A DNA stretch of 64,000 nt from Eledone cirrhosa. Its lineage: Eukaryota. The stretch's first letter is position 1. Each line of letters begins with the position of its first letter. The notes below the pieces were generated by a model that saw only the letters and a list, made by a program, of their open reading frames with translations, had not been told where the DNA came from and did not search any database. Positions 2,529 to 64,000 of this stretch are shown piece after piece. The translations under genes and the position numbers were made by a program. The stretch is taken from assembly GCA_964016885.1 (NCBI GenBank), contig OZ024740.1, positions 214,334,001-214,398,000 of the forward strand, read 5' to 3'.

Positions 2529-2993
2529 ACGTCGGTATACATATATGTATGTACGTGTACATACTTATATTTAAGTAACAGCCGTACTAAGAGTGGGAAA
2601 TAAAATATCGTTTCATTTTTTCCGTTTATCGTTTTCGGTGCACCCGGCCGATTAACCCACTCGATATGCAAATTGGGCTACTCAGCCGTTAATATGCATA
2701 AGGGAAGTATATACGTTCAACAATCTGGCAGGAAGGTATACGTTGCTGACGATAGCTAACAAGCTTGAAACTAGTACAGCGTTCCTTTGTCAGTGTTGAA
2801 CAAACGAGCAACGGTGGTTGCTAGACACTACGGCTTAATACGGGATGTTTGTTTACAAACACACCGAGCATTATAATAAATATTCGGTGAATCCATACGT
2901 GCATATATATATGTGTGCATGTATGTATATATATATATACATACTACTGTACGTCGGTATACATATATGTATGTACGTGTACATACTTATATA
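2529..2993 (+). mobile_element. Non-coding ~422-nt HHR-containing repeat monomer with terminal redundancy (retrozyme-like family A)
   Basis: ACGTCGGTATACATATATGTATGTACGTGTACATACTTATAT occurs at 2529 and again at 2951. The unit holds an octamer (2666), an HHR (2740) and a hairpin CCGAGCATT..AATATTCGG, and ends in (TA)n. Homologous copies lie at 34.9-36.3 kb and 53.4-53.7 kb. Confidence 0.8.
2740..2782 (+). ncRNA. Type I minimal hammerhead ribozyme
   Basis: ACGTTG-CTGACGA-TAGCT AACA AGCT-T-GAAA-CTAG-TA-CAGCGT. Stem I ACGTTG/CAGCGT, stem II AGCT/AGCT, palindromic stem III ACTAGT, GUA cleavage triplet. Confidence 0.85.
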
Positions 2994-3604
2994 TATATAT
3001 AGATATATATATATACATAGATATATATATATATACATATAGATATATATATATACATATAGATATATATATATATACATATAGATATATATATATACAT
3101 ATAGATATATATATATATATACATATAGATATATATATATACATATAGATATATATATATATATACATATATATACATATATATACATAGATATATATAT
3201 ATATATATATACATAAATATATATATACATATATACATAGATATATATATATACATAAATATATATATACATATATACATAGATATACATATATACATAG
3301 ATATATACATATATACATAGATATATATATATACATAGATATATATATATACATATATATATATATACATAGATATATATATACATATATATACATAGAT
3401 ATATATATACATATATATACATAGATATATATATATATATATACATAGATATATATATACATATATATACATAGATATATATATATACATATATATACAT
3501 AGATATATATACATAGATATATATACATAGATATATATATAGATATACATAGATATATATATATATATATACATAGATATATATACATAGATATATATAC
3601 ATAG

Positions 3605-22473: not shown

Positions 22474-24562
22474 CTAGTTACAGATCAGATGCGATTTCAG
22501 ATGAGGACAGCATCTGAAGATCTCAGTCTTTGAGTTAAGGCAAGCGGAAGTGGCTCTCAAGTTTAGCAAAATCCTATACTTTTCTGTGGTACACAAAGAA
22601 CAATTCTTTGTGACCCTTTGGTACTCCCTCGAATGGTCTAATATAGACCAATCAATAAAGTACGGGATGTTACTATCCTTGCGTTCCCACACCTTACTTG
22701 CGAGGGCCGTTGATGTTCGTTTATCGGAGTGCTTAAAAGAAGCGACATGTGAGTAAAATCTGGTTTTAAACCTGTCCTGGGTCATACCAACATATCGCTT
22801 ACTCCTGGCTGGCTGGTTGTTGATTACCGGTGTTATCTTAGCCTCATAAACAACAGATTTGGTGTTACATTTACCCTGCAATGGGCATTCATCCGGCTTC
22901 CTGCAACTGCATCCTGGATTTATTCTCGTATGGTTTGAACTGGTGATTTTGTACTTCATACATGGGCAACAAGAGTAGCTGATCTTAACTACGTTCCTAT
23001 TAAATATCTTATAATATCTATGATTAGGAGGAAAATGTTTGTCTAATAGTTCAAGGAATTTCCTTCCTACATTAGTTTTGACAGTTAGAGAGAAGGGGGG
23101 TGTGAACCAAATAATCTTCCTTTTCCTGTTATTGTGGTTAGTTTTAGGGGGGGGGGGGGGAGTAGGTAAATAAGAATTTTTTTCTGTAAAACCGCTGTTC
23201 TTAAGGGCTTTATTATAATAGGGGCGGCTTTATTAAAAATGTCTATAGACGAAGATAAGGTAGAAATCCTACGGCTAATGTTAGGAATAAGATTATTAAA
23301 AACTATAGGGGGATGGCAAGATACCTAAGATTTTCATTAGGTTTATGATAGGGTTTAAAAGAGGCGGTAAGTAGATCAAGATTAATATCAAGAAAGTTAG
23401 CATTAGTAAGGTTCGTATCTATAGTGATTTTAAGGTTAAGGTTAGCAAAAGTATTGATTAAATCTTTACGGAATTTATCAAGGTTATGGCCGTTGGTGGT
23501 ATGAGAAACTGCTAATTCGTCATCACGGTATAAACCGATATTATGGGACGGAAATTTCTCTTTGAGGGTGTGGAGAAGGAATAATCCTACTAAGTCACAC
23601 ACATCCGCACTGTCATATGAACCCATTGCAACATCAAAAGAGTTTTCAGGGTTTGACTTTTTAACCCAAATATTATCATTAGTAAAGAGTAAAGTTTTTC
23701 TAGCATGAAAGATAATGTCTTCTAATTTAGAAATATTAATGAAGGGTCTTGCAAAATCTAAGGCATTAGTTAATAAGGAAACAGTAATAGATGGGTAAAA
23801 ATCGACAATATCAAATTGGGTAAATCTACACTTATTTTTACCTTGTATAATATTGAACCAAGAAATAACAGAGGAAGTATTTAGCCACTGTGATAGGCCA
23901 GTGTTAGTTCTAATTTGGAGAATTATTTTTCTTAAGATTTTCTTACTTGCAAGGCCAACCTCGGATTTAGCCGGTTTAATCAGTCTACAACTAGGTCGAT
24001 TAGTAAAGTCCAATTTATGGTCTTTAAGGGTAATATATTCTTTACGCTTAGCTAGGCATTCAATCCGGTTATCTATTTGTAAAGAACTATCTAGTTCTTT
24101 AGCTTCTTTATTGATAGTATTGTAGGTATTATTATTAGTTAATTGATATTTATTGGTAATACTATTAGTTAAAAGTTGGTTATACAAAGTACTATTAACT
24201 TCAAAGAGATATTTAGTTTTATCAGAAAGAACAAAAGTGTTTGTAGAATTTCTAAAATTAGAAATATCGTTAGATAGTTTAGTTTGAAAGTTATTATTGA
24301 ACTTACGAAATTTGATATCACTAATTAGATTAACAAGGTCTAATTCGAAGTTGGCCATGTCTTTAATTCTAGGTGGATATTTACGGGATTTGATGTCAAA
24401 ACAATCTTTAGTATCAGCACTGAATAGTCCATCGTAAACCATTGCCTTCCATCTCATTCTTTTAACGACTTGTTCGATTTTATCTATGAGGATTTTGGTA
24501 TAAGTTGTGTTGGAAGGAGTGGGTATATTTTTGATTGAATAATCCAATTCATAAAGATCCAT
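22474..24562 (-). pseudogene. Full-length but frameshifted Hydra-like PLE ORF (RT + GIY-YIG)
   Basis: 23303-24562 has YSIKNIPTPS..KRMRWKA, FDIVDFYPSI, MGSYDSADV and LYRDDEL. 22474-22959 has CSCRKPDECPL, VVYEA..YVGMT..FKTRFYSH and CSLCTTEK..CCPH. Frameshifts lie in 22960-23303. Confidence 0.92.
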
Positions 24563-24735
24563 AGTGTATGTTGGTTAAATTCCTGAAAACTGTAGAGTGC
24601 TCAACTAATCGGGCTGGAAAGTGCCAATCGTAAATGTAATATAGAATATGCTTCAATCAATCCCGGTTGGAGCTGTATAAATTTATATATATATATACAT
24701 ATATATATACATATATATGTATATATATATATATT

Positions 24736-27220: not shown

Positions 27221-27340
27221 ATAAATTGAAACAAAATGAAAACGAAATTTCATTTCTCACTCTTAGTATGGCACTTACTTAAATGTAAGTATGCATGTAT
27301 ACGTACATACATATATGTATACAGACGTACAGTAGCATGC

Positions 27341-27379
<39 letters not shown>

Positions 27380-27630
27380 CATATGCATACAGGTACACAT
27401 ACATACATGCACGTATCAGTTTAGCGGCGCTTATTATAACGTCGCTTTGTTCGTTTGTAAACAAACTGAACACCCTGAATTTATGCCAACAAAAAGGTGA
27501 CGTGGTTGCCTTAACACCGTATGGCATAAATTCAGGCTGTTCAGTTTGTTTACAAACAAACAAAGCGACGTTATAATAAGCGCCGCTAAACTGATACGTG
27601 CATATATGTATGTGTACCTGTATGCATATG

Positions 27631-27662
<32 letters not shown>

Positions 27663-30209
27663 TATGCATGCTACTGTACGTCTGTATACATATATGTATG
27701 TACGTATACATGCATACTTACAATAAATATATATATATATATATACGATATTAAATAAATGGAAACTATATTTATAAAACCATATTTATTTCATTATATA
27801 TATTTCAGGGATATCATATTAACAATATGTTATGCCTTCCTCAGACAAAATACAATATAGACAGTTTTATAGATAAATAGATTTGACATACCGTTCAACA
27901 TCGACTTGTATTTGAGAAAGTTGATTTGGCAGTGAAAAAATTGTAAACAGAAAGAAAGAAAGAGAGAAAGAAGGAAAGAAAGAAAGAAAATGAAGAAAAA
28001 GAAGAAAAAGAAGAAATGCCTGTAACAAAATAGAGAGATGGAAAGATAGATAAAGAGAAGAACTTCATGTAAAGAAACAGAGATATATATATATAGAGAG
28101 AGGAAATAGATAGAGATAGATATATATAGAGAAAAGTAGGTAGTTGGAACGTATCAATGATACATTTATTTATTTATTTATTTATTTAGCTCTAGTATTA
28201 ATGTAAGGGAGATATATGTGGTTAGGGAAGAAACCAGCCGTTATATAGAGAGAAAAATGAAAAGTAACCAGACATAGGCGAGGCATAATTTAAAAACCCT
28301 ATGTTTTAATGTAGAAGTATTAGTACGTATAAAAACCAGGCGCTATAATGTAAATATCAGTATTCCTGAATGAGACACGTATCCATAATGTGTGAAAAGT
28401 AATGATCTTATGTTTAGTTTTAAAAATTCATATGTTTATATGATAACTACAAACATCGATGTGAATTTACGTGATCAATTCCGCAAATCTCTATTTCACA
28501 CGGAGAACATTCTCATTGTGCTATAAAAATTTAAGTATACATATATGTGTATATATATACACATATATATAGAGTCTATATTAATTTTAACAATACTATT
28601 CTTGTCTTTACTCTACATGATTATCTATCAAGCAGAAATAGAGAACAGATTTCAATATATTAATAAAAAAATATCAGAAACAAAAACAAAAACAAAAAAT
28701 AATAATGATAATAATAATAATAAATAATAATAAAATAGAAAACTAAAAAATAAAAAATATTACAAAAAATATTACATATTAAAAATAAAAATATTAGAAA
28801 ATATTACAATAATAAAAATAAACCGCAAAGATCAACCCTTCAAAATTAATTGACAATATATTGCCAAGTTCATTATAAGCACCAGAGTCGAAAACAGATA
28901 AAGCTAAAAATTATTTATCAAATCGCGTCTAGCAAAAATCATTTCAAAAAGTTTAGGATGCCCATTTGGTCTACATGTGTTCTTATATTTAATATAGAAG
29001 TTTATCTAGTGTAACGTTTATTCGAAATATTTGGAGCATCAACTTTTAGGGTAGTTTAATTTTTCATGAAGAATGTTTAAATAAAAATAAAAATAAAAAG
29101 AAGAATAAAAAGAAGAAATCGAAAGATTTATCGGCTAGTTTCCCAAATATACTACATTTTAAATTTAAATTTATATTTAAAAGTTGAGTTTAATCTATGT
29201 TTGCAGCAACTGAATAAATTTGTCCGTAGATTAAGGGAATTTTTAGATTTTAGTATAAAGAATATCTCCTCTGCGCAGAGGTCACATGTCTCAGAGGATG
29301 AATTAAAAGGAATCCCTCTTGAGACTATATTCCAAGCCGTCGAATATCTAACGTTATCTAGCTTAAGTTGCCAGAGTACGCCTGATAGTGCTGTTGAAGA
29401 TTTTTTGCTTGGATCTGTGAAAGAATTCTTGTGGTTATTATAGCGAAGTTTAAATTCCGTCGATGTGGAACCGACGTAGTTAAAAGAATTAGAGTCAGTT
29501 TTAACATTACAATTGTATATTATATTTTTAACTAAGCAGTTGTTATTTAACGGACATTTAGATCTATCTCTACAGTTACATTTGTTAACTTGTATATTAT
29601 TTATGCTATTATCACTAGGTTTTAAGTTCCTATTATTTATTCTATTAATATTTTGTGCTAAATTTTTGGTGGATGAGTAGGTTAATTTTATAGTATGTCT
29701 ATTGAAAATTGAGTGATACCTATGTGTTCTAGGGAAGCGATTATCAAGAGCTTTAAAAAATAGTTTAGCGATGTGGGTTTTAATGTTTAGTGAGAAAGGG
29801 GGGGCAAACCAAATTATGTTCCTAGTTCTATTTCTTTTTTGGCTTTTGGAATTATTGTAATGCTTTCTATTATATTTGTTAAGGTTGTTGCCGTAATTAA
29901 AATAGTTGTTATTTTGTTTAGTTTGTCTATCATTATCTATGTACATAATCTTATCACTATATCCTGCTCTAGCTAACGCTTCATTGTAGTACTGGGCTTT
30001 TTCGTCGAAAATCTTTCTATTAGACGAGATTCTAGAGATACGTTTTTGAACAGAGTTTACTATAGTGTTTTTGACAGATCTGGGGTGGTTAGAGTTAAAG
30101 CTGACATAGTTTAAGTTTTCATTCAACTTGTGAAAAGGATAGTGAAGACATGTGTTGAGATTTAATGTTATATCTAGGAAATTGACTATTCTATGGTTGT
30201 TCTCAATTT
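27221..30209 (-). mobile_element. Inverted 5'-truncated duplicate of the intact PLE 3' half, including ~520 bp of its downstream flank
   Basis: Reverse complement of 32056-35038 with only a few substitutions. ORF 29152-30126 equals the C-terminal part of the 737-aa ORF, with one A/V difference. Confidence 0.95.
27787..27852 (-). ncRNA. Hammerhead ribozyme (inverted pLTR copy)
   Basis: Reverse complement of 34413-34478. Confidence 0.75.
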
Positions 30210-30655
30210 TAAATTATGCCTCGCCTATGTCTGGTTACTTTTCATTTTTCTCTCTATATAACGGCTGGTTTCTTCCCTAACCACATATATCTCCCTTACA
30301 TTAATACTAGAGCTAAATAAATAAATAAATAAATAAATGTATCATTGATACGTTCCAACTACCTACTTTTCTCTATTTATATCTATCTCTATCTATTTCC
30401 TCTCTCTCTCTATATATATATATATCTCTGTTTCTTTACATGAAGTTCTTCTCTTTATCTATCTTTCCATCTCTCTATTTTGTTACAGGCATTTCTTCTT
30501 TCTCTTCTTTTTCTTCATTTTCTTTCTTTCTTTCCTTCTTTCTCTCTTTCTTTCTTTCTGTTTACAATTTTTTCACTGCCAAATCAACTTTCTCAAATAC
30601 AAGTCGATGTTGAACGGTATGTCAAATCTATTTATCTATAAAACTGTCTATATTG

Positions 30656-30721
30656 TATTTTGTCTGAGGAAGGCATAACATATTGTTAATATGATATCCC
30701 TGAAATATATATAATGAAATA
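30656..30721 (+). ncRNA. Hammerhead ribozyme in the 5' pLTR
   Basis: TATTTTGT-CTGAGGA-AGG..CCT-GAAA-TATATA-TA-ATGAAATA. Stem I is 8 bp with two G.U pairs; stem III is palindromic. Confidence 0.75.
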
Positions 30722-30899
30722 AATATGGTTTTATAAATATAGTTTCCATTTATTTAATATCGTAAATATACTCCAAATACTTGTTGAGTGCTTTTATATC
30801 AGTTATAAATATTTACTAGTTGTAACCCAACAATTTAAATATAACTTTCCATGTATCTTGCTCCAATACTGTTGAGCGCTTTATATTATAACTGAAAAA

Positions 30900-33113
30900 A
30901 TGGAATTCTTTAAGATTACTTCCTCTTTAAAAGACATACCTATACCTAGAAACAAAGACTTTATAAAACAATTAATAGATAAATCTGACTCTTTTATAAG
31001 GAGAATCAGGTGGCGAGCATTCCACTTTGATAAATCTAATATAAATGAAAATGTCTCGGACTTAAACAAAGTTTTCAAATCTAAAAGAAATCCACCCCCT
31101 AACAAACTTTTATCTGACTTTGAAAACGATATAATTTCTATCATACAAGGGGTCAAATTCAAGAGAAACTTCAAAGGCCAGGAATATCTGAAAGGCATTA
31201 AGGATAATATTGAGAGCTTAGAGAAAACTGAGAAGATCTTGGTGAAATCTGACAAGACCAACAACCTCTATGGAGTGCAGAAAGACATGTATAATGGCCT
31301 CATACTGAAGGAACTGAGGAAAAAGTACAAGGTAGCAGATAAAGCCGATTTTGAGAAAATGAATGTCGAAGCATCTTGTATAATGCACGAGTTGGAAATT
31401 GAGAAGAGAACACAACCTTTCGTGCCCAGGAAACCGAAGATCAATATGAAAGATCACAAAAGGAATTTTGAAAATGATTTGCCAGTTAGATTGATCGCAC
31501 CATCAAAATCGGACCTGGGCAAATTAAGCAAAAACATTCTTGACAGGGTGATACAGCAAATTAAGAACTTGGATTGTTTACCTAACCTGAGCTTGTGGAA
31601 GGGAACTGGAGAGGTTGTTGAGTGGTTTAAGCAAATTAAATATAACAATAATAATAAGTTTATTCAACTTGATATTGCTAACTATTATTCTTCTATTACC
31701 CCTAATCTACTAAATAAGGCACTAAATTACGCATTCAAACATACAGACCTAACTAGCAATGAAATGCACATTATATTATCGGCTAGGAAAACATTGATAG
31801 AATTTAATGACCAACTATGGACCAGAGCAGATAGAGATAGCAATTTTGACATTACTATGGGATCATCCGACTCAGCTCAGGTAATTGACCTTGTGGGCTT
31901 ATTTTTAATCAATTCGCTACATAGGAAAATATCTGGTACTACCGGAGGTTTATATAGAGATGACATGCTTTTACTTATTGATAATAATAACTCTGAACTA
32001 AATAGAAAAAGAAAACAAATTACACAATTTTTTAATTACTTTAATCTTAAAATAGAAATTGAGAACAACCATAGAATAGTCAATTTCCTAGATATAACAT
32101 TAAATCTCAACACATGTCTTCACTATCCTTTTCACAAGTTGAATGAGAACTTAAACTATGTCAGCTTTAACTCTAACCACCCCAGATCTGTCAAAAACAC
32201 TATAGTAAACTCTGTTCAAAAACGTATCTCTAGAATCTCGTCTAATAGAAAGATTTTCGACGAAAAAGCCCAGTACTACAATGAAGCGTTAGCTAGAGCA
32301 GGATATAGTGATAAGATTATGTACATAGATAATGATAGACAAACTAAACAAAATAACAACTATTTTAATTACGGCAACAACCTTAACAAATATAATAGAA
32401 AGCATTACAATAATTCCAAAAGCCAAAAAAGAAATAGAACTAGGAACATAATTTGGTTTGCCCCCCCTTTCTCACTAAACATTAAAACCCACATCGCTAA
32501 ACTATTTTTTAAAGCTCTTGATAATCGCTTCCCTAGAACACATAGGTATCACTCAATTTTCAATAGACATACTATAAAATTAACCTACTCATCCACCAAA
32601 AATTTAGCACAAAATATTAATAGAATAAATAATAGGAACTTAAAACCTAGTGATAATAGCATAAATAATATACAAGTTAACAAATGTAACTGTAGAGATA
32701 GATCTAAATGTCCGTTAAATAACAACTGCTTAGTTAAAAATATAATATACAATTGTAATGTTAAAACTGACTCTAATTCTTTTAACTACGTTGGTTCCAC
32801 ATCGACGGAATTTAAACTTCGCTATAATAACCACAAGAATTCTTTCACAGATCCAAGCAAAAAATCTTCAACAGTACTATCAGGCGTACTCTGGCAACTT
32901 AAGCTAGATAACGTTAGATATTCGACGGCTTGGAATATAGTCTCAAGAGGGATTCCTTTTAATTCATCCTCTGAGACATGTGACCTCTGCGCAGAGGAGA
33001 TATTCTTTATACTAAAATCTAAAAATTCCCTTAATCTACGGACAAATTTATTCAGTTGCTGCAAACATAGATTAAACTCAACTTTTAAATATAAATTTAA
33101 ATTTAAAATGTAG
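30900..33113 (+). CDS. PLE polyprotein: reverse transcriptase + C-terminal GIY-YIG endonuclease (737 aa, Hydra-clade-like CxCx5C linker)
   Basis: Uninterrupted ORF. RT motifs LDIANYYSSI, MGSSDSAQV, LYRDDML, VNFLDITL. Thumb SNHP..AGY. Linker CNCRDRSKCPL. Endonuclease IIY..YVGST..FKLRYNNH..CDLCAEE..LN. Confidence 0.95.
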   Translation: MEFFKITSSLKDIPIPRNKDFIKQLIDKSDSFIRRIRWRAFHFDKSNINENVSDLNKVFKSKRNPPPNKLLSDFENDIISIIQGVKFKRNFKGQEYLKGIKDNIESLEKTEKILVKSDKTNNLYGVQKDMYNGLILKELRKKYKVADKADFEKMNVEASCIMHELEIEKRTQPFVPRKPKINMKDHKRNFENDLPVRLIAPSKSDLGKLSKNILDRVIQQIKNLDCLPNLSLWKGTGEVVEWFKQIKYNNNNKFIQLDIANYYSSITPNLLNKALNYAFKHTDLTSNEMHIILSARKTLIEFNDQLWTRADRDSNFDITMGSSDSAQVIDLVGLFLINSLHRKISGTTGGLYRDDMLLLIDNNNSELNRKRKQITQFFNYFNLKIEIENNHRIVNFLDITLNLNTCLHYPFHKLNENLNYVSFNSNHPRSVKNTIVNSVQKRISRISSNRKIFDEKAQYYNEALARAGYSDKIMYIDNDRQTKQNNNYFNYGNNLNKYNRKHYNNSKSQKRNRTRNIIWFAPPFSLNIKTHIAKLFFKALDNRFPRTHRYHSIFNRHTIKLTYSSTKNLAQNINRINNRNLKPSDNSINNIQVNKCNCRDRSKCPLNNNCLVKNIIYNCNVKTDSNSFNYVGSTSTEFKLRYNNHKNSFTDPSKKSSTVLSGVLWQLKLDNVRYSTAWNIVSRGIPFNSSSETCDLCAEEIFFILKSKNSLNLRTNLFSCCKHRLNSTFKYKFKFKM

Positions 33114-34412
33114 TATATTTGGGAAACTAGCCGATAAATCTTTCGATTTCTTCTTTTTATTCTTCTTTTTATTTTTATTTTTATTTAAACATTCTTCATG
33201 AAAAATTAAACTACCCTAAAAGTTGATGCTCCAAATATTTCGAATAAACGTTACACTAGATAAACTTCTATATTAAATATAAGAACACATGTAGACCAAA
33301 TGGGCATCCTAAACTTTTTGAAATGATTTTTGCTAGACGCGATTTGATAAATAATTTTTAGCTTTATCTGTTTTCGACTCTGATGCTTATAATGAACTTG
33401 GCAATATATTGTCAATTAATTTTGAAGGGTTGATCTTTGCGGTTTATTTTTATTATTGTAATATTTTCTAATATTTTTATTTTTAATATGTAATATTTTT
33501 TGTAATATTTTTTATTTTTTAGTTTTCTATTTTATTATTATTTATTATTATTATTATCATTATTATTTTTTGTTTTTGTTTTTGTTTCTGATATTTTTTT
33601 ATTAATATATTGAAATCTGTTCTCTATTTCTGCTTGATAGATAATCATGTAGAGTAAAGACAAGAATAGTATTGTTAAAATTAATATAGACTCTATATAT
33701 ATGTGTATATATATACACATATATGTATACTTAAATTTTTATAGCACAATGAGAATGTTCTCCGTGTGAAATAGAGATTTGCGGAATTGATCACGTAAAT
33801 TCACATCGATGTTTGTAGTTATCATATAAACATATGAATTTTTAAAACTAAACATAAGATCATTACTTTTCACACATTATGGATACGTGTCTCATTCAGG
33901 AATACTGATATTTACATTATAGCGCCTGGTTTTTATACGTACTAATACTTCTACATTAAAACATAGGGTTTTTAAATTATGCCTCGCCTATGTCTGGTTA
34001 CTTTTCATTTTTCTCTCTATATAACGGCTGGTTTCTTCCCTAACCACATATATCTCCCTTACATTAATACTAGAGCTAAATAAATAAATAAATAAATAAA
34101 TGTATCATTGATACGTTCCAACTACCTACTTTTCTCTATATATATCTATCTCTATCTATTTCCTCTCTCTATATATATATATATCTGTTTCTTTACATGA
34201 AGTTCTTCTCTTTATCTATCTTTCCATCTCTCTATTTTGTTACAGGCATTTCTTCTTTTTCTTCTTTTTCTTCATTTTCTTTCTTTCTTTCCTTCTTTCT
34301 CTCTTTCTTTCTTTCTGTTTACAATTTTTTCACTGCCAAATCAACTTTCTCAAATACAAGTCGATGTTGAACGGTATGTCAAATCTATTTATCTATAAAA
34401 CTGTCTATATTG

Positions 34413-34478
34413 TATTTTGTCTGAGGAAGGCATAACATATTGTTAATATGATATCCCTGAAATATATATAATGAAATA
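34413..34478 (+). ncRNA. Hammerhead ribozyme in the 3' pLTR
   Basis: Identical to 30656-30721. Confidence 0.75.
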
Positions 34479-34604
34479 AATATGGTTTTATAAATATAGT
34501 TTCCATTTATTTAATATCGTATATATATATATATATATTTATTGTAAGTATGCATATATACGTACATACATATATGTATACAGACGTACAGTAGCATGCA
34601 TATA

Positions 34605-34638
<34 letters not shown>

Positions 34639-35157
34639 CATATGCATACAGGTACACATACATACATGCACGTATCAGTTTAGCGGCGCTTATTATAACG
34701 TCGCTTTGTTTGTTTGTAAACAAACTGAACAGCCTGAATTTATGCCATACGGTGTTAAGGCAACCACGTCACCTTTTTGTTGGCATAAATTCAGGCTGTT
34801 CAGTTTGTTTACAAACGAACAAAGCGACGTTATAATAAGCGCCGCTAAACTGATACGTGCATGTATGTATGTGTACCTGTATGCATATGTATATATATAT
34901 GTATATATATATATATATGCATGCTACTGTACGTCTGTATACATATATGTATGTACGTATACATGCATACTTACATTTAAGTAAGTGCCATACTAAGAGT
35001 GAGAAATGAAATTTCGTTTTCATTTTGTTTCAATTTATCGTTTTCGGTATGCCTGACCGATTTAACTCACTCAATAAGCAAATTAGGCTGCTCAGCCGTT
35101 AATTTTCATAAGGAAAGTATATACTTTCGAACGTTCAACTATCTGGCAGATGGGTAA

Positions 35158-35200
35158 ACGGTGCTGATGATAGCTAACAAGCTCGAAACTAGTACATCGT
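35158..35200 (+). ncRNA. Type I minimal hammerhead ribozyme (family A)
   Basis: ACGGTG-CTGATGA-TAGCT AACA AGCT-C-GAAA-CTAG-TA-CATCGT. Confidence 0.9.
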
Positions 35201-35219
35201 TCCTGTGTCAGTGTTGAAC

Positions 35220-35405
35220 TTAGGTGACTGCAGGCGCCGAAAAAGTCGGCCCTTCTGTTTAATAGCTTGGTTCCGCCATGAAGTATCTCAAGTGTATCAC
35301 TAACACAGAGGTTGCAAATACCAGACCCACCTCTGTCTGAGGAAACCTTTCTAACCACGGACCAGACCAAAGAGAGCGGGGTCTTTTCAAGTTTGAGCTT
35401 CCAGA
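35220..35405 (-). pseudogene. Isolated Hydra-like PLE endonuclease C-terminal fragment
   Basis: Reverse complement translates IWKLKLEKTPLSLVWSVVRKVSSDRGGSGICNLCVSDTLEIL..LLNRRADFFGACSHL. Confidence 0.8.
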
Positions 35406-36076
35406 TTTATTATAATGTTCGGTTTGTTTGTAAACAAACAGCCCGAATTAAGTCGTACAGTGTTCGGCAACCATCGTTGTTCTTTTGTTCAACACTGACA
35501 AAGGAACGATGAAGTTAATAGCTGTCATCAGCACCGTATACCTTCCTGTCAGTCAATTGAACGTTTGAAAGTATATACTTTCCTTATGCATATTAACGGC
35601 TGAGCAGCCTAATTTGCATATCGAGTGACTTAGTCGGCCGGGCGTACCGAAAGCGATAAATGGAAAAATGAAATTTCATTTCTCACTCTTAGTACGGCTG
35701 ATACTTAAATACAAGTATGTATACGTACATACATATATGTATACAGACGTACAGTAGTATGTATATACATACAAACCGAACATTATAATAAATGTTCGGT
35801 AAACCCATACGTACATATATATATATGTGTGCATGTATGTATGTATATACATACTACTGTACGTCTGTATACATATATGTATGTACGTATACATACTTGT
35901 ATTTAAGTATCAGCGGTACTAAGAGTGAGAAATGAAATTTCATTTTTTCCATTTATCGTTTTCGGTACGCCCGGCCGACTAACTCACTCGATATGCAAAT
36001 TAGGCTGCTCAGCCGTTAATATGCATAAGGAAAGCATATACTTTCAAACGTTCAATCATCTGACAGGAAGGTATTC

Positions 36077-36115
36077 GATGCTGACGATAGTTAATAAGCT
36101 TGAAACTAGTTTATC
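36077..36115 (+). ncRNA. Hammerhead ribozyme (family A, weakened stems)
   Basis: GATG-CTGACGA-TAGTT AATA AGCT-T-GAAA-CTAG-TT-TATC. Confidence 0.65.
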
Positions 36116-36324
36116 ATTCCTTTGTCAGTATTGAACAAAAGGGCAACGACGGTTGCCGAACACTGTACGGCTTAATTCGGGCTGTTTGTTTACAAACAAA
36201 CCGAACATTATAATAAATGTTCGGTAAACCCTACGTACATATATATATATATATGTGCATGTATCTATGTATATACATACTACTGTACGTCTGTATATAT
36301 ACATGTATGTACGTATACATACTT

Positions 36325-36373
<49 letters not shown>

Positions 36374-39739: not shown

Positions 39740-40075
39740 CCCTCGAAACGGCTTGAGCTCAGCCGTCGGGGTCCTACTCGTTCCTATTATCCACTCTACT
39801 ACCCTAAGGATTGAGTACTTTGGTGCGTTATGGTCCACCTGGTTCCTTACCACATTTACTTCGTTATATATATATATATATATATATATCCAGGTGGTGT
39901 ATATATATATATATATATTGGAATAACTGCTCTGAAATAGCGATATATATGTGAATATAGACATAGAATATTCGAAAATATTCTGTATGTTTATAATAAA
40001 CATTTTGAAGACCTAATCGCTATAGAATAGAATACGTCACGTATTACAATTAGATTCTCGATAAAAGCAAGGGAA

Positions 40076-40118
40076 GTAATCTACGCGTTTCATTCTTATT
40101 AGAAATCTTCAGGACTAC
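40076..40118 (-). ncRNA. Type I minimal hammerhead ribozyme
   Basis: Reverse complement of 40357-40399. Confidence 0.8.
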
Positions 40119-40356
40119 ATATCCAGTGCTTTTATCGAGAATGACACAGCTAAAGACTTATAGAATACTTAGCTGTGTACAGGATATTTTCGAATATTCT
40201 ATGTCTATATTCACATATATATCGCTATTTCAGAGCAGTTATTCCAATTTCTAATTTCTGCCGGACCGGCAACCGCTCTTTCAAACCAGTTCCTGTACAC
40301 AGCTAAGTATTCTATAAGTCTCTAGCTGTGTCATTCTCGATAAAAGCACTGGATAT

Positions 40357-40399
40357 GTAGTCCTGAAGATTTCTAATAAGAATGAAACGCGTAGATTAC
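40357..40399 (+). ncRNA. Type I minimal hammerhead ribozyme
   Basis: GTAGTC-CTGAAGA-TTTCT AATA AGAAT-GAAA-CGCG-TA-GATTAC, with palindromic stem III ACGCGT. Confidence 0.85.
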
Positions 40400-40545
40400 T
40401 TCCCTTGCTTTTATCGAGAATCTAATTGTAATACGTGACGTATTCTATTCTATAGCGATTAGGTCTTCAAAATGTTTATTATAAACATACAGAATATTTT
40501 CGAATATTCTATGTCTATATTCATATATATATATATATATATAAT

Positions 40546-41370
40546 ATTAGAAAGATCGAGTATCGAAAATTCGGCGCACGAGTTCACGATAAACAAAATT
40601 CGAAATGAGCGGCAGAGGGCTCAATAATTCAGATGAATCAGAGCTATAACTATCGTTAAAATACCGTCACATATAGAACAAGTCTACAATCAACCATACG
40701 ATAAAAAATCGATAATAGAAGATTCGGGACAAACAGATAAAAAATATCAATAAAACAATACATCAATAATTTAAATGAATGTAAAATCATACCCGGACCC
40801 ACTAGAAAGATGTTAAATCTAGCTTCTTGGGTTTCTTTAAATCCTTAGACTGTACTCTATCAGCTTACATATAAATATAAAAGCCTACTAGAGCAAGAGG
40901 AACGGAGTTTACTTTCTCAACGAGCTTTTTTCCTAGCGGATAAGGGGCTAACTACCAGTGAAAAACGCACATGGCATTAGACAAGGGAGATAACCTCTAC
41001 ATCCGCGAAAACTATTCGAGGGAATGTGGAAATACACATATCGAATAAGAGTGCTCAATAGACATGTTAAAATAAAACAAAAGCTATTCATCACTCAATA
41101 GAATCGACAAAAAATGAGCAATAAAATTAACTGGTGGATAGCTATGTCCAGAGCTAAAAATATTAGAAAGATCGAGTATCGAAAAATCGGCGCACGAGTT
41201 CACGATAAACAAAATTCGAAATGAGCGGCAGAGGGCTCAATAATTCAGATGAATCAGAGCTATAACTATCGTTAAAATACCGTCACATATAGAACAAGTC
41301 TACAATCAACCATACGATAAAAAATCGATAATAGAAGATTCGGGACAAACAGATAAAAAATATCAATAAA
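40546..41370 (-). mobile_element. Non-autonomous element with ~205-bp direct repeats (pLTR-like, period ~616), in (TA)n
   Basis: 40546-40753 recurs at 41162-41369 almost identically. Reverse-strand TTGAGCACT lies at 41050. Distant relative at 7488-7690. Confidence 0.7.
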
Positions 41371-47194: not shown

Positions 47195-47850
47195 AAAAAC
47201 TTTTCGCTCTACATGGCTGAGTTTTTCGAATGTAATCTGAGTTTTTCGAATATTAATAATAATATTCGATTCGTTTGCAATTATGTAAACAGCCTCTTTT
47301 AAGCCATGTCGGTAGAAGGAGATCCTCCTTCTTGCTCTTGTGTTGGCTTGTAAAGAGAACTGCAGAGACTGCTGTTTCTGGGTGATTACCCTTCTTCAGT
47401 GCAGTTTACTGTTCACCTGCCAACTGTCAGCGCTAGTGAAGATATGTGATATTGTCTAAAATATACAGTGACTGATCGGCTTGATTTGCGTATTAGCAGA
47501 CTGGCTGATCAGTCAGATCTGCATATTAGCAGATCCACTGATCAGCCAGATTTGCATATCAGCAGTTTCATGTATACGAGCGATTAATGGCCGGCTTTGC
47601 GATATCCAAATAACTAACAAAAAGTTATCGCTCTACATGGCTGAATACAATAAATGTAATCTGAGTTTCTTCGAATATTAATAATAATATTCGATTCGTT
47701 TGCAATTATGCAAACAGCCTCTTTTAAGCCATGTCAGTAGAATGAACCCTCATTCTTGCTCTTGTGTTGGCTTAAAAGAGGCTGTTTGCATAATTGCAAA
47801 CGAATCGAATATTATTATTAATATTCGAAAAACTTAGATTACATTTATAT
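47195..47850 (-). mobile_element. Retrozyme-like family B: ~424-nt monomer (1.3 copies) + terminal inversion, degenerate HHR at about 47358-47407
   Basis: TCGCTCTACATGGCTGA occurs at 47204 and 47628. Reverse strand reads AACTGCA-CTGAAGA-A-GGGT AATC ACCC-A-GAAA-CAGCAG-TCTC-TGCAGTT. Three octamer-like repeats lie at 47482-47560. Confidence 0.65.
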
Positions 47851-52264: not shown

Positions 52265-53410
52265 TTAAACCTTATTTAATGTTGGTCTATATTTTTGAAT
52301 AAACATATTTTCCTTATTTATTCGCATTTGTTCTGTTGTATTGTTAGCGCAAAGGTAAAATGGGAAGACTTGGAATTTGGGTGTCTTATTACTTGCGCAA
52401 ATGTCTAGATGTGCACTTAGTGGTATTTGTCTCGTGGTTGGATCTCGTAATTGTTGGCGATGAACTGTCATTCTGTTTCTGAGTGTGAGTTTAGTTTGTC
52501 CTATATAATCTTCATTGCATCCTTTACATTTAATGGCATAAATTAGATTTTTTGATGAGCAAGTGAAGTGATTTTTTACAGTAAAATTTTGTCCTGATTT
52601 AAATGTATACGTGTTGCCTTCAATGAGGTGAGTGCAGGTTCCACAATTAGAGCGACCACATTTTTTGATACTTGGTTGTGGGTTTGTGGTAGGTAATTTG
52701 GCATTGGTGAGTAATGTTTTCAGTGATTTTGGTTGTCTTTTGCTTTGGATTATTTTGTGTGTTTCAAGGGCTTTTTTCATTCTTGGGTTTTGTTTTAGTA
52801 GTGGGATGTTATTGTGAATAGTGTTGTAAGCTTCCGCATTTCTTGGGTTGTGTGTTGAGATATATGATAGAATATTGGACGTACCTTGAATTTGTTTCTG
52901 TTTCCGTAATTCATCAATGCCTATTGCTTTAGCCCTTTCTATTCCATTATTTATTAGTAATAGTGGGTACTCTCTCTCAAGTAGAATTTCCTTTAATTCT
53001 TGAAGTCTTTTATTTCGCGTTTCATAATTGGAGACAATTGTGCAAATTCTTCTTGCTAGGTTAAAAGGAATGTTCGTCTTCGTGTGCTTTGGATGGTTGG
53101 AGGTGAATAGCAGATATTGTTTGGAATCTGTTGGTTTGTAGTGTATGTCAGTTTCGATATTTGTGTCTTTTTTTGTGATTAAGATGTCCAGAAATGGGAG
53201 TTGATCTTGGCTGTATTCCATTGTGAATTGGATGTGGTTATTGATGCCGTTTATTAAGTTTTTGAAATCCTTCAGTTGGTCGAGTGTGTGGGACCAAAGA
53301 ATGAGGCAATCATCCAAGTAGCGTTTCCAATTCTCTGATAAATATTTGTGGAAGTTCAATCCGTATTTTGATTTGGACTGTTCATATATCTGGACTTCTA
53401 AGTATGCCAT
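52265..53410 (-). CDS. 5'-truncated Neptune-like PLE ORF, uninterrupted 381 aa (RT C-half + GIY-YIG); 3'UTR runs to about 51060 with a degenerate HHR at 51192-51229
   Basis: WKRYLDDCLILW, LPFLDILI, SNHPKH, KKCGRSNCGTC, TCSSKNLIYAIKCKGCNEDYIGQT..LRNRMTVH..H..E..LN. Truncated at (TA)n. Confidence 0.9.
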   Translation of the reverse strand: MAYLEVQIYEQSKSKYGLNFHKYLSENWKRYLDDCLILWSHTLDQLKDFKNLINGINNHIQFTMEYSQDQLPFLDILITKKDTNIETDIHYKPTDSKQYLLFTSNHPKHTKTNIPFNLARRICTIVSNYETRNKRLQELKEILLEREYPLLLINNGIERAKAIGIDELRKQKQIQGTSNILSYISTHNPRNAEAYNTIHNNIPLLKQNPRMKKALETHKIIQSKRQPKSLKTLLTNAKLPTTNPQPSIKKCGRSNCGTCTHLIEGNTYTFKSGQNFTVKNHFTCSSKNLIYAIKCKGCNEDYIGQTKLTLRNRMTVHRQQLRDPTTRQIPLSAHLDICASNKTPKFQVFPFYLCANNTTEQMRINKENMFIQKYRPTLNKV

Positions 53411-53412
53411 GA

Positions 53413-53442
<30 letters not shown>

Positions 53443-53447
<5 letters not shown>

Positions 53448-53727
53448 ATTCACCGAACATTTATTATAATGCTGGGTGTGTTTGTAAACAAACATCCCAT
53501 ATTAAGCCGTAGTGTCCAGCAACCATCGTTGCTCGTTTGTTCAACAAAGGAACGCTGTACTAGTTTCAAACTTATTAGCTATCGTCAGCAACGTATATCT
53601 TCCTGCCAGATTGTTGAACGTATATACTTATCTTATGCATATTAACGGCTGAGTAGCCCAATTTGCATATCGAGTGGGTTAATCGGCCGGGTGCACCCAA
53701 AACGATAAACGGAAAAAATGAAACGAA
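53443..53727 (-). mobile_element. Retrozyme-like family A copy with HHR at 53552-53594
   Basis: Reverse complement reads ACGTTG-CTGACGA-TAGCT AATA AGTT-T-GAAA-CTAG-TA-CAGCGT. Octamer at 53661. Confidence 0.85.
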
Positions 53728-55019: not shown

Positions 55020-55060
55020 TATTATCATCATTATTATCATTATTATTATTATTAATATTA

Positions 55061-56043
55061 TTCCTTGAATCTCAGTCATTGATGTTGGTTAACTGGAAAG
55101 TCCGTTGGATTGAATATCAAGCCACTACCTGCAGCCTCAGATATTCAGGACGTATCGGAGGGTTCTTGCTGTTCCAAGCAAGCATGCCTTTTGAAGCGTT
55201 CCAAAAAGCGTGAAGGGGCCGATTTTCTTTAACCATCCCTGGAAACCTTTGGAGATAGTCCCCAGTGCGCCTATGACAATCGGGATCACTTTGACTTCAT
55301 GGCAGTTCCAAATCCTTTTCACCTCCCACTTTAGGTCCTGGTATCGGTTAATTTTCTCCCTCTCCTTCTCTTGCACTCTCGTGTCGAACGGGCAGGCCAC
55401 ATCCACAATCAGGCACGATCTTTTTTCTTTGTCCACAACCACCAGGTCAGGTCTATTGTGTTCCAGTTTTTTGTCCGTCTGTATCCTAAAATCCCACAGC
55501 ACCTTCACCTGACTGTTCTCCATCACCGCCTCTGGCCTATGCTCATACCATTTCTCAGAATGTGGTAGATTGTTTACTTTGCACAGGTGCCAGTGGATCA
55601 CCCTGCCCATCACATCGTGTCTCCAGCCCTTATAGTGGGTCTGGGCTAGGTGTTTACACTCGGACACAATGTGAGCCACAGTCTCCTCTCTCTCTCCACA
55701 GATCCTGCACAGTGGGCTAGCCTCCTCCTTGTAGATATGGTGCTTCAACCACTTCGTGTTGAGGGCCTGCTCCTGCGCAGCCATTAGCATTCCTTCTGTA
55801 GCCTTTTTGAGGTCTCCTCTTCTCAACCAGTTCCATGTTTGTGGATCTCTAAATTCAGTTTTCTCAAAGAAGGTACTATGAAGGGATTTTCCCTTAAGGC
55901 TGCTCTTCCTCCTTGATGTTATTTCCTCCTTGGATATCCCCTGGCCTACTGTCCCCTCCTTCAGTACAGCTCTGAGCATTGGCTCCTTACTATAGGTCAC
56001 GTATTTGTATAGGTTGTTTTTCTCCATCTGAACACAGTCCTCT
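55061..56043 (-). mobile_element. 5'-truncated R4/Dong-like non-LTR retrotransposon (CCHC zinc knuckle + restriction-like endonuclease)
   Basis: AAQEQAL, CRICGEREETVAHIVSEC, RHD, NRPDLVVVD..IVDVACP..EK..RY, PIVIGALG. Flanked by (TAA)n on both sides. Confidence 0.9.
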
Positions 56044-56071
56044 ATTATTATTATTATTATTATTGTTGTTA

Positions 56072-56165
56072 TTCCTTGAATCTCAGTCATTGATGTTGGT
56101 TAACTGGAAAGTCCGTTGGATTGAATATCAAGCCACTACCTGCAGCCTCAGATATTCAGGACGTA
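56072..56165 (-). mobile_element. Very short 3' end of the same R4/Dong-like element
   Basis: Matches 55061-55154. Flanked by (TAA)n. Confidence 0.9.
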
Positions 56166-56195
56166 TTATTATTATTATTATTATTGTTATTGTTA

Positions 56196-56643
56196 TTCCT
56201 TGAATCTCAGTCATTGATGTTGGTTAACTGGAAAGTCCGTTGGATTGAATATCAAGCCACTACCTGCAGCCTCAGATATTCAGGACGTATCGGAGGGTTC
56301 TTGCCGTTCCAAGCAAGCATGCCTTTTGAAGCGTTCCAAAAAGCGTGAAGGGGCCGATTTTCTTTAACCACCCCTGGAAACCTTTGGAGATAGTCCCCAG
56401 TGCGCCTATGACAATCGGGATCACTTTGACTTCATGGCAGTTCCAAATCCTTTTCACCTCCCACTTTAGGTCCTGGTATCGGTTAATTTTCTCCCTCTCC
56501 TTCTCTTGCACTCTCGTGTCGAACGGGCAGGCCACATCCACAATCAGGCACGATCTTTTTTCTTTGTCCACAACCACCAGGTCAGGTCTATTGTGTTCCA
56601 GTTTTTTGTCCGTCTGTATCCTAAAATCCCACAGCACCTTCAC
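56196..56643 (-). mobile_element. Third 5'-truncated copy of the R4/Dong-like element
   Basis: Nearly identical to 55061-55508. ORF 56272-56643 gives the same RLE peptide. Confidence 0.9.
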
Positions 56644-57425: not shown

Positions 57426-58174
57426 TTATTATTATTATTATTATTATTTCAGCATTGGTTTTGTATCAATACTTTTCTATCCTTGCAATGTCCCAATCAT
57501 ATGACGCCCTTGTGGCAAATAAATGTAATTATTATATTATATTTATTTATTTACTGTTTATTGCGCCTTAACCTTCAAAATAAATAAATAAAATAGATAA
57601 AAGGGAAAAAATAAATTCGGAAAATAACATTAAAAAAATAAAAATATATAATGAAACAGAAAAGAAATACGAAAAGAAAATCTAACTAAAAAAAACCCAA
57701 CAATCATAGAAATAACCAAAAACAAAAAAAAAAGAAAATAGTTCGATTTTTAATGGTGATCACGTGTGAGGATGCTCCTGATGAATAATAAAACAAAAAA
57801 AGAGAAACAAAAAAACAAGCAAACCAAAAACAAAAATGCTGGAAACGAAACGAAACGAAAAAAATATATAAAGTTAAGGGTTGGGAGGTAAATAAATATA
57901 TAAATAAATAAAGTACCTGGCATTGGGACTGGCGTAACAAGAGCCGAAGCGTTGATTATGATAGCTTAGTGAGGCTGTGGAGAATGGTGATAATCATAGG
58001 TCTATAGGGCGACACGTGCAGTATAGGGGTGTCGGGGTGGGGGACAGGGACCGTTTGTTATTTTATTTGATGTTTTTTTTATTTTTTGGTTTTCCAGGCG
58101 AAAACTGATTCCTCGTTGCTCTGTCACTGACACGGAACTGTCTGTCACTCAGGCTGGCTTTCAACACTGGCTCT

Positions 58175-58642
58175 CTACTACACCACCACTACCACCACCA
58201 CCACTGTCACCACTACCGCCACTATCACCAACACCACCACCACCACCATCACCATCACCACCACCACTGTCACCAACAGCACCAGCACCACTACCACCAC
58301 CATCACCATCACCACCACCACTATCACCACCACCACTACCACCACTATCACCAACACCACCACCACCACCACCACCATCACCATCACCACCACCACTATC
58401 ACCACCACCACTGTCACCACTACCACCATTATCACCAACACCACCATCACCATCACCACCACCACTGTCACCAACAGCACCAACACCACTACCACCACCA
58501 CCACCACCACCACCATCACCATCACCACCACCACTATCACCACCACCACCACCACCACCACCACCACCACCACCACCACCACCACCACCACTATCACCAA
58601 CACCACCACCAGCCCCCCCCGCCACTACCAACACCACCACCT

Positions 58643-58697
<55 letters not shown>

Positions 58698-59718
58698 GAC
58701 AACTACTACCACCACTACCTCCGCTACTACTATTACTACTACTACTACCACCAAAACCACCACCACCACCACCACCTCTACTACTACTACTACTACAACC
58801 GCCGATATGGGCAGCCACACACCACCACCACAACAGCACCAGCACCACCAACAACACCACCACCACAACAGCTACTGCTGGCACCCTCACCAGACCATTA
58901 CCACCACCACCACAGATACCGTAGTCGCCCATTACCACTGTCACTATATTACTACTAGATCACTACTTCAACCACACTCACCACCACCACCACAACCACC
59001 ACCACCGCAATCAGCCCCACCACAACCATCACCACCACAAGTACCACAACCTCCACCATCACAACCAACCCCACCACCATCACAACCACCACAACCAGCC
59101 CCACCATCACCACCACGACCATCACAACCACCACAACCACCACCATCACAAACAACCCCACCACCACCACTACAACCACCACAACCAGCCCCACCACAAC
59201 CACCACAACCACGACCATCACAACCAACCCCACCACCACCACTACAACCACCACAATCAGCCCCACCACAACCACACCACCACCACCACCTACAATCACC
59301 ACAAACAGGCCCACCACCACCACCACCACCACCACAACCACCACCACCACAAGTAACACAACCACCACTACCATCACAACCAGCCCCAACAGTACCACCA
59401 CCATCACCACCACCACAACCACAACCACCACCACCACCAGCACTACCGCTACAATCCACAACTCCCACCACTACCACCACCACAACGAACCCCACCTTCA
59501 CCACAACCACCACCACCATCACCATCACCACAACCCTCACCACACCTCAACCCCCACCACAACTAACCCCACCATCACAACCTCCACCATCACCACAACC
59601 AACCCAACCACCACTACCATCACAATTACCACCACTCTATCATTAGCATCGTTAATACCACCAGGACCGTTATAACCATCATTGCCACTACTACCACTAC
59701 TCCACTACTACTACTACA

Positions 59719-59764
<46 letters not shown>

Positions 59765-59903
59765 TCACCGCTACTACAGCCCTCCCACTACTACTACTAC
59801 AATTACTACTACTACTAATATTACTACTACCATTATCACCGCTACTACTGCCCTCCCACTGCTACTACTACTACTACTACTACCACTACTACCACTATCA
59901 CCG

Positions 59904-59963
<60 letters not shown>

Positions 59964-60255
59964 TTATCACCGCTACTACAGCCCTCCCACTATTACTGCT
60001 ACTACTACTTCGAATACTACTAATACTATCACCGCTACTACAGCCCCCCCCCCCCCCCCTCCACTACCACCACTACTACTACCACTATCACCGCTAATAC
60101 AGCAGCCCCTACTACCACCGCTACTACAACCCTCCTAATACCACCACCACTACTACTATAACCATTATTGTCATCACTACTGTCATCATCACTACAACTG
60201 CTACCACCCCACTGTCACTCTCCCCCATGACTATCAACACCATCACCATCACAAT
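58175..60255. repeat. Degenerate (CCA/CTA/TCA)n trinucleotide low-complexity tract
   Basis: Read directly from the sequence. Confidence 0.9.
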
Positions 60256-63700: not shown

Positions 63701-64000
63701 CCACACCACATCCACTAATACTAGCACCAATACACAAAAACTACTGCAACCATACCACATCCACTAATACTAGCACCAATACACAAAAACTACTGCAAGC
63801 ACACCACATCCACTAATACTAGCACCAATACACAAAAACTACTGCAAGCACACCACATCCACTAATACTAGCACCAATACACAAAAACTACTGCAACCAC
63901 AGCACATCCACTAATACTAGCACCAATACACAAAAACTACTGCAACCACAGCACATCCACTAATACTAGCACCAATGCACAAAAACTACTGCAACCACAC
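60702..64000. repeat. 49-bp tandem satellite/minisatellite (~67 units, runs off the window end)
   Basis: Unit CACTAATACTAGCACCAATACACAAAAACTACTGCAACCACACCACATC; TCCACTAATA occurs at 60721 and 60770. Confidence 0.97.

Follow-up and report, generated by a model that had tools for sequence, protein, structure and literature searches.

A probable non-LTR hammerhead retrozyme family with a U6/MRP-like promoter module and preferred 3' ends at (TA)n in Eledone cirrhosa

Repeat copies at the locus

The window, a 64,000-nucleotide stretch of the Eledone cirrhosa genome (assembly GCA_964016885.1, contig OZ024740.1, positions 214,334,001 to 214,398,000 of the forward strand), contains copies of a non-coding repeat of about 425 nt that carries a hammerhead ribozyme (HHR) motif. 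The three places given for the repeat in a preliminary description are refined here to 2529-2995 (+, period 422), the composite 34543-36326 and 53446-53727 (-), and the period of 425 reported for the copy at 35771-36326 (+) is borne out. Bounded by (TA)n, the composite is made up of two subfamily B pieces, one inverted and one forward, then a 186-bp endonuclease fragment, then two subfamily A pieces, again one inverted and one forward. The individual features are listed below.

2529..2995, +: young copy of subfamily C, 1.1 monomers, period 422 (proximal element 2665-2676, TATA 2708, HHR 2740-2782)
27221..27738, -: inverted duplicate of the subfamily B pieces at 34528-35038, lying where the inverted arm of a Penelope-like element (PLE) ends; it stops exactly at priming site 2, next to (TA)n
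30207..34527, +: Hydra-clade PLE with frame 30876-33113 and pLTRs 30207-30770 and 33970-34527 that have their own HHR; candidate mobiliser, separate from the unit
34543..34780, -: inverted subfamily B arm, its end at priming site 1 adjoining (TA)n
34770..35219, +: piece of subfamily B; its HHR looks intact (35158-35200, GUA after 35194), and its proximal element, at 35075, is a variant
35220..35405, -: C-terminal endonuclease fragment, 186 bp, of another PLE family, between two retrozyme pieces
35405..35776, -: inverted 5' arm of the subfamily A copy; HHR core partly deleted, GAAACTAGT lost
35771..36326, +: copy of subfamily A with 1.3 monomers and a period of 425, whose 3' end meets (TA)n at priming site 1
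35776..35799, +: CCGAACATT hairpin, again at 36201-36224; in subfamilies A and C only
35890..35905, +: priming site 1, formed by ACATACTT and an AU-rich hairpin loop; holds 28 of 81 3' ends, at +207..+221 relative to the cleavage site
35943..35956, +: priming site 2, a T-run and then CCATTTAT; +272..+278 from the cleavage site, 32 of 81 3' ends
35992..36003, +: proximal element TATGCAAATTAG, identical to the element of U6 gene L206
36035..36040, +: TATA-like box, CATATA here and TATATA in most copies, 42 nt downstream of the proximal-element ATG
36075..36117, +: type I hammerhead in degenerate form, with four pairs in stem I and a GUU site after 36111
53446..53727, -: truncated copy that contains HHR 53552-53594 and is joined via (TA)15 to a 5'-truncated PLE RT-EN frame

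The copies had been described as free of open reading frames, which holds for the units, in whose natural dimers the longest ATG ORF spans 50-68 aa, but not for the composite, where 35220-35405 is a PLE endonuclease piece. Copies of 1.1-1.3 monomers likewise exist as described, but arrays of up to 71 units occur too. An Rfam scan of the window gave no hammerhead family among the 150 of 347 matches listed, all of which lie below the gathering score and nearly all of which are microRNA models placed on TA repeats.

Other repeats are found nearby. A second young hammerhead repeat of about 250 nt (39943-40532, and L257:2034-3096 elsewhere in the genome) has 99% identical copies, inverted arms and TA ends; the base of its helix II is U.U, and it has an ACGCGU palindrome, followed by a match to the host snRNA distal motif. 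At 40543-41370, 212-bp direct repeats (99.5%) surround about 400 bp with no ORF of 90 aa and end at (TA)n, possibly as a non-autonomous PLE. The C-terminal part of a non-LTR retrotransposon frame (55030-56643), with a zinc knuckle and, by eye, a restriction-like endonuclease motif, lies in (ATT)n with a partial tandem copy. Long CAC/ACT repeats (58027-60150) precede a 49-bp tandem array (60712-64000; 67 copies, 96%), which could be a repetitive coding exon or a satellite.

Size and lineages of the family

Genome-wide searching, which the preliminary description had called for, reveals a large family of about 25,000 copies in the 3.0-Gb assembly: the exact HHR pattern of subfamilies A-C is matched 24,619 times, against 0 for the reversed control. 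Among 60 ten-kb stretches taken at round coordinates on contigs C1-C8, seven hold repeat loci, which scales to about 35,000 loci (95% Poisson interval 14,000-72,000). With the A copy as genome query, the best 40 of 3009 first-look candidates were scored, and the top full-length ones are 93-96% identical to it; the C copy at 2529 has relatives of 98-100% identity as well as head-to-tail arrays. Dispersed copies, often of 1-1.5 units, are found over all large contigs, the young ones being 98-100% identical, and they are accompanied by head-to-tail arrays, the longest of which comprises 71 units over about 35 kb in contig C12. A layout of LTR, internal region and LTR was not seen, and two sequencing runs of unspecified kind held family variants only.

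The monomer measures 422-471 nt at a GC content of 36-39%, slightly above the 150-400 nt given in the available text of PMC7229834 and inside the 51-972 bp given in that of preprint 10.64898/2026.07.22.740005. A more distant lineage, D, has a 466-nt unit that is collinear with the others. Seen at L070:7255-7985 and at L237-L266 (array C1:5738350-5751969), it forms long arrays, carries the promoter-like module of the other lineages, has priming sites homologous to theirs, and shows the canonical G-C pair at the helix II base. Family E, of about 327 nt, carries a different HHR, and its best alignment to B-D reaches only E = 0.054. Copies of E (L142:7560-8320; L240:1360-1740) contain the same proximal element and TATA box, 43 nt apart and about 100 nt before the core.

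Relation to Penelope-like elements

The PLE ORFs lie in the same window as the units and are unattached to them. In the genome at large, a PLE ORF joined to the unit at a shared junction was found in 0 of 92 unit-bearing stretches, mostly top-scoring matches with about 1.5 kb of flank, queried with the PLEs of this window only. No match to the 13 PLE frames of the window occurs in 72 of these stretches; in the others, a same-strand PLE piece lies downstream of the unit in 13 loci, upstream in six (two loci belong to both groups) and in neither position in three, and the six upstream matches are all different, 375-1310 bp away and without a shared junction. The preliminary description had named the alternative that the unit is only the pLTR of a coding PLE and always attached to an RT ORF; as no PLE ORF runs into the unit in any of the 92 loci, the unit is better understood as a non-LTR retrozyme than as a pLTR. 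The non-LTR retrozyme reading of that description is thus supported, as is its proposal of mobilisation by PLEs, for which the fixed 3' ends at (TA)n, the inverted 5' arms and a Hydra-clade arm ending at a priming site all speak. The endonuclease fragment at 35220-35405 was considered as a mark of a parent PLE and rejected, as all 29 of its other copies continue into their own 3' UTR.

The neighbouring PLE has an open frame of 745 aa (30876-33113) that shows the motifs of the Hydra clade: a C-terminal endonuclease, DKT, a CxCX5C linker, CxxC, CxH, no CCHH, an HHR in the pLTR and a (TA)n target, the assignment being made from motifs in the translation against the available text of PMC8557442 and not from a tree. 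Pfam recognises GIY-YIG only in the frame 52265-53413 and nothing in the Hydra-type frames, of which two others lie at 119-1965 and 22474-24574. As a whole, 27221-34527 appears to be a young and intact Hydra-clade PLE, with two hammerhead-bearing pLTRs and a 3-kb inverted arm. The arm lies upstream (27221-30209, 99.2% identical), continues for 511 bp beyond its own pLTR into the subfamily B pieces, and switches to (TA)n exactly at priming site 2. This one locus is most simply read as priming of a read-through PLE transcript at the retrozyme site; a fold-back at the DNA level is possible, though it does not predict that the arm should end at site 2. A source locus that combines the pLTR and subfamily B at high identity was not present among the best 40 of 1910 candidates. 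Pieces of other PLE clades also adjoin the units through common TA targets, and because several neighbouring clades share this target, it does not pin down the partner.

Hammerhead ribozyme and RNA fold

The full HHR core, consisting of a 6-bp helix I, CUGAYGA, a 4-bp helix II with tetraloop, GAA, the palindromic ACUAGU and a GUA or GUU site, is present in 46 of 59 HHR-region matches, and sampled copies of subfamily A mostly have the GUU site. Helix III is formed by 2 bp with a palindromic loop. The available text of PMC4209133 describes such a layout as the canonical metazoan type I, which cleaves as a dimer, with a highly conserved G10.1-C11.1 pair. These positions read U.U, U.C or C.A in A-C, which thereby lack a canonical feature of the type, and G-C in D; U.U at 10.1-11.1 also occurs in two other HHR families of the genome. 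A further hammerhead family (L162, L178, L090) has an AGUACU palindrome, a U.U base of helix II and a GAAA loop, with no PLE ORF match nearby.

Several details of the preliminary description can be judged against these data. The GUA cleavage sites after 2776 and 35194 are correctly placed (HHRs 2740-2782 and 35158-35200), and the palindromic stem III recurs as ACUAGU in the full-core HHRs. The ribozyme is of type I, as stated, but not of the minimal PLE type, since helices of 6, 4 and 2 bp are canonical for metazoans by the available text of PMC4209133. Stem I was said to vary yet pair in every monomer; helix I does covary, but the copy at 35771-36326 is degenerate, with four pairs. The conserved hairpin is found in A and C as CCGAACATT, but B and D have other sequence there.

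When nine natural A-D monomers are compared, both sides are changed in 21 of 107 predicted pairs, whereas shuffled controls average 10.8 (0 of 500 reach 21) and slid controls give 2-5; these counts lean high because the structure was derived from the same alignment and the rows form only four lineages. Pairs changed on both sides make up three of six in helix I, three of four in helix II and three of eight in a long-range helix, and every cell is paired. Circular folds of three natural monomers are 67-68% paired, with z = -5.2, -9.3 and -7.0 (25 shuffles each), values that are due in part to TA-rich palindromes. Energetic support for a dimeric form was sought and not obtained: the monomeric HHR folds no better than shuffles (z from -1.2 to +0.7), and in a two-strand cofold the pairing runs via stem II and not the helix III palindrome. 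According to the available text of preprint 10.64898/2026.07.22.740005, eight of nine Xenopus retrozyme dimers did not cleave in vitro.

Ends of the copies and candidate priming sites

The 3' ends of the A and C runs, taken in the sense of the HHR, are concentrated at two internal AU-rich sites, mostly against (TA)n: 28 of 81 lie at +207..+221 and 32 of 81 at +272..+278 from the cleavage site (60 of 81 together), and 0 of 81 fall within 10 nt of the cleavage site itself. Most ends had been said to abut (TA)n, which is true of the 3' ends (66 of 81) but not of the 5' ends, which are scattered and adjoin TA in 13 of 83 cases, in a set of matches picked for covering the query, whose lengths and 5' ends are biased accordingly. 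The homologous priming sites are used in B and D, many B runs having ambiguous ends that break inside a long internal TA tract. Priming site 2 sits between two T4-T6 runs, and priming site 1 has no adjacent T-run. An inverted 5' arm with its own 3' end facing outward is present at many loci; PLEs with inverted 5'-truncated arms, and a Hydra clade that targets (TA)n, are described in the available text of PMC8557442. The motif TTTCCATTTAT, common to site 2 of subfamily A and the ends of Hydra-type pLTRs, was set aside as a weak lead that is not kept in B, C or D.

A U6/MRP-like promoter module

The longest invariant block across lineages A-D is TATGCAAATT, which is accompanied by a TATA-like box and forms an invariant run of 10 nt, compared with 9 nt for GAAACTAGT. 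The proximal element also shows no covariation across A-D and is thus kept as sequence. The same pair of element and TATA box precedes the host U6, U6atac and RNase MRP genes, and the octamer that the preliminary description had named in its title and left unexplained matches the host U6/MRP proximal element. All five distinct host Pol III type-3 promoters (three U6, MRP and the top U6atac match) have TATG(C/G)(A/T)AAT(T/G)AG at -76..-78 and TATA at -30, a set that leaves out one U6 copy with a second promoter-like stretch upstream (L211) and five lower U6atac matches taken for pseudogenes. The octamer occurs in none of the host U1/U2 promoters examined, and the element of the unit is identical to that of one U6 gene (L206) at 12 of 12 positions.

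Scored with a matrix of free spacing, the modules of A-E reach 20.3-25.5 bits (element alone 15-18, TATA 5-9), compared with 20.0-25.4 bits for the real genes under leave-one-out, and 0 of 200 nulls reach each score. The distance between element and TATA is 41-43 nt in A-E, as opposed to 46-48 nt in the host genes, and so departs from type-3 spacing. A shift of a few nucleotides in this spacing can change the choice of polymerase. At the native 46-48 nt the TATA term is negative, and 3-58 of 200 nulls reach the score. The spacing is tightly conserved in insects according to the available text of PMC1761439. A pattern of element, TATA and HHR core gives 25,696 genome matches, one of its bases excluding subfamily C, and 0 in the control. 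In 600 kb plus the window, the element lies upstream in 6 of 37 HHR matches, all belonging to A-E; in one further B copy it is mutated, and it lies upstream of 0 of 30 HHRs from other families. The module is thus common to A-D and to the unalignable hammerhead family E.

A position 30 nt past the TATA box would fall 2-10 nt before helix I in A-C. Runs of T4-T6 occur on the sense strand of every unit; they would stop Pol III within the unit and argue against Pol III making whole units. A Pol II geometry of the U1/U2 type (TCA(G/A)T at -57, TATA-like 26-28 nt later), seen by eye, was rejected, as 72-200 of 200 nulls reach the score at the expected site. A distal (T/G)ACYTCCCTT motif about 250-290 nt upstream occurs in U1, U2 and U6 and not in MRP or U6atac, and the unit has a reverse look-alike by eye only, unscored. 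A literature search found no paper on retrozyme promoters or mollusc U6 elements.

Some further observations concern these motifs. Among the host genes (L181-L218, L230, L231), those of type 3 share the octamer-like element at -77 and U1/U2 share TCA(G/A)T at -57, and a distal (T/G)ACYTCCCTT-like motif is common to U1, U2 and U6; this set of motifs would be useful for a U6 promoter tool. Three random stretches (L065, L070, L173) contain a repeat in which TATA follows a U6-like element after only about 23 nt and which lacks a nearby hammerhead, and a 33-bp tandem repeat at 47471-47565 of the window holds the reverse octamer.

Circle or multimer as template

Runs longer than one unit cross the cleavage site in the majority of cases (32 of 48 in A, 26 of 33 in C), suggesting that the template was a circle or an uncleaved multimer and not a cleaved linear monomer. 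Private variants are shared by all or nearly all same-arm units in 6 of 11 short young arrays; when partial pieces are included, the variant is in every piece at L124 (five pieces, the inverted arm among them), L128 and L224, and not in every piece at L127, L132 and L223, which local duplication accounts for. The mean distance within arrays, 5.9, is not below the 4.3 between loci, in a comparison where one group held an older unrelated copy and loci were picked for closeness to the query. Given these distances and the complete sharing of variants in three of six arrays, the evidence for rolling-circle copying is mixed. Higher-order repeats in the C12 array, together with internally shared variants, represent local DNA amplification.

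Proposed mechanism and alternative explanations

Non-LTR retrozyme identity is supported by the sequence features described above, and we consider it probable that the roughly 25,000 copies form a retrozyme family whose own U6-like promoter likely drives its transcription, whose ribozyme likely cuts the transcript into RNA of unit length that is probably circular, and whose RNA is likely copied into (TA)n by a PLE reverse transcriptase, most likely one of the Hydra clade. The start of transcription would lie some 30 nt downstream of the TATA box and 0-25 nt ahead of stem I, with read-through into the next unit. Two ribozymes would pair via the palindromic helix III and then cleave, and a PLE endonuclease would nick (TA)n, so that the 3'-OH could anneal to a UAU site inside the RNA and the reverse transcriptase could copy more than one unit. 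Long arrays would then grow further by local duplication. A more far-reaching reading, advanced tentatively and in our view somewhat doubtful, is that this class of retrozyme took over the upstream promoter of host U6/MRP genes as a cassette, in at least two hammerhead lineages that do not align with each other, and that the cassette survives copying only via a multimeric or circular template, with the spacing cut by about half a helical turn for read-through and with UAU sites conserved for priming of a Hydra-clade Penelope RT at (TA)n nicks.

Part of the evidence could also be accommodated by a SINE-like linear route, in which a linear multimer that is never or rarely cleaved serves as template, for instance a transcript that reads through and terminates at the T-runs next to site 2; on this view the ribozyme of A-C is weak, and circles, if formed at all, are a by-product. 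The loss of G10.1-C11.1 in A-C, the position of site 2 between two T4-T6 runs, the array variants that are not uniformly common to all pieces, and the PLE arm 27221-30209, primed at site 2 on a chimeric template that, if RNA, was necessarily linear, all fit such a route. It sits less well with site 1, which is not beside a T-run, with HHR stems that covary around a core kept in 24,619 copies, with helices 1-3, which pair both ends of the cleaved unit as in a circle, and with the private variant of L124 in all five pieces, inverted arm included; moreover, circles have been shown for mussel, coral and axolotl retrozymes, as the available text of PMC7229834 reports. On balance, the linear route seems unlikely.

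Two explanations dispense with a retrozyme altogether. The PLE-like insertion anatomy would be expected if the unit were the pLTR or 3' end of an unsampled coding PLE and the dispersed copies its 5'-truncated insertions, and preprint 10.64898/2026.07.22.740005 relates Xenopus retrozymes to pLTRs in its available text; the 92-locus test, moreover, used top-scoring matches and the 13 PLE frames of the window only. Nevertheless, in arrays of up to 71 units each unit has the previous unit upstream of it, no ORF-unit junction occurs in the 92 loci, and the pLTRs seen carry different HHRs and no promoter element, making this origin very improbable. Spread as an ordinary satellite at the DNA level, by unequal crossing-over or DNA circles, with the ribozyme and promoter-like motifs as inert relics, would explain the local DNA amplification visible in the higher-order repeats and internally shared variants of C12. 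It is, however, strongly disfavoured by the strand polarity of the ends, fixed at 3' and scattered at 5', and it conflicts with the TA targeting, the 5' inversions, the dispersal over all large contigs, the 98-100% identity of young dispersed copies and the covarying RNA helices; we regard it as very improbable.

Comparison with known systems

The family resembles the metazoan non-LTR retrozymes of coral, mussel and axolotl (PMC7229834) and of Xenopus (10.64898/2026.07.22.740005), as far as the available texts of these sources describe them, in its type I HHR and its short, low-GC, non-coding tandem repeats, which range from monomers to large multimers, are highly self-paired and co-occur with PLEs. 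Its monomer of 422-471 nt is larger than that of mussel retrozymes (350-390 nt in the available text), and it differs from the metazoan retrozymes in its conserved promoter-like module and priming sites and in the U.U, U.C or C.A base of helix II in A-C. A report of a cephalopod retrozyme was not found in the literature searched, which had most subscription journals and the repeat databases outside its reach.

Hammerhead repeats with internal promoters have precedents in newt satellite 2, with an snRNA-type Pol II promoter, and in a schistosome hammerhead satellite with a Pol III promoter, both cited in the available text of PMC2220036. Compared with these, as far as that text describes them, the module in E. 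cirrhosa matches the host type-3 (U6/U6atac/MRP) element plus TATA and not the U1/U2 element, its spacing is shorter than that of the host genes, and it is common to two unalignable HHR families. The hammerhead-bearing pLTRs of Hydra-clade PLEs (PMC4209133, PMC8557442, available texts) share the palindromic helix III suited to dimeric cleavage, the (TA)n targeting, the inverted 5'-truncated arms and the tandem copies. The unit, in contrast, has no ORF, is circularly permuted, carries a different HHR sequence and has a promoter-like module that is absent in the pLTRs seen, and the distance from the HHR to its 3' ends is about 210-275 nt, compared with about 50-140 nt in the pLTRs. SINEs and TRIMp3 elements (PMC10886601, available text) are likewise non-autonomous and use promoter motifs of small-RNA genes, but theirs are the gene-internal promoters of tRNA, 5S or 7SL. 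A type-3 promoter, located ahead of the start site, would be retained in the copy only with a multimeric or circular template, as proposed here.

The mode of transcription of animal retrozymes and the enzyme that mobilises them are open questions (PMC7761336; 10.64898/2026.07.22.740005): the available text of PMC7761336, a 2020 review, states that retrozymes seem to have neither promoters nor a motif pointing to the mobiliser, and that of the 2026 preprint leaves the mechanism open. With a promoter candidate, two priming sites, young near-identical copies and a neighbouring Hydra-clade PLE with an open frame, both questions become directly testable in E. cirrhosa. The family is also an additional repeat class, with tens of thousands of copies, and what is new in it beyond known retrozymes is the U6/MRP-like module common to unalignable families, the conserved priming sites and a PLE arm that ends at one of them.
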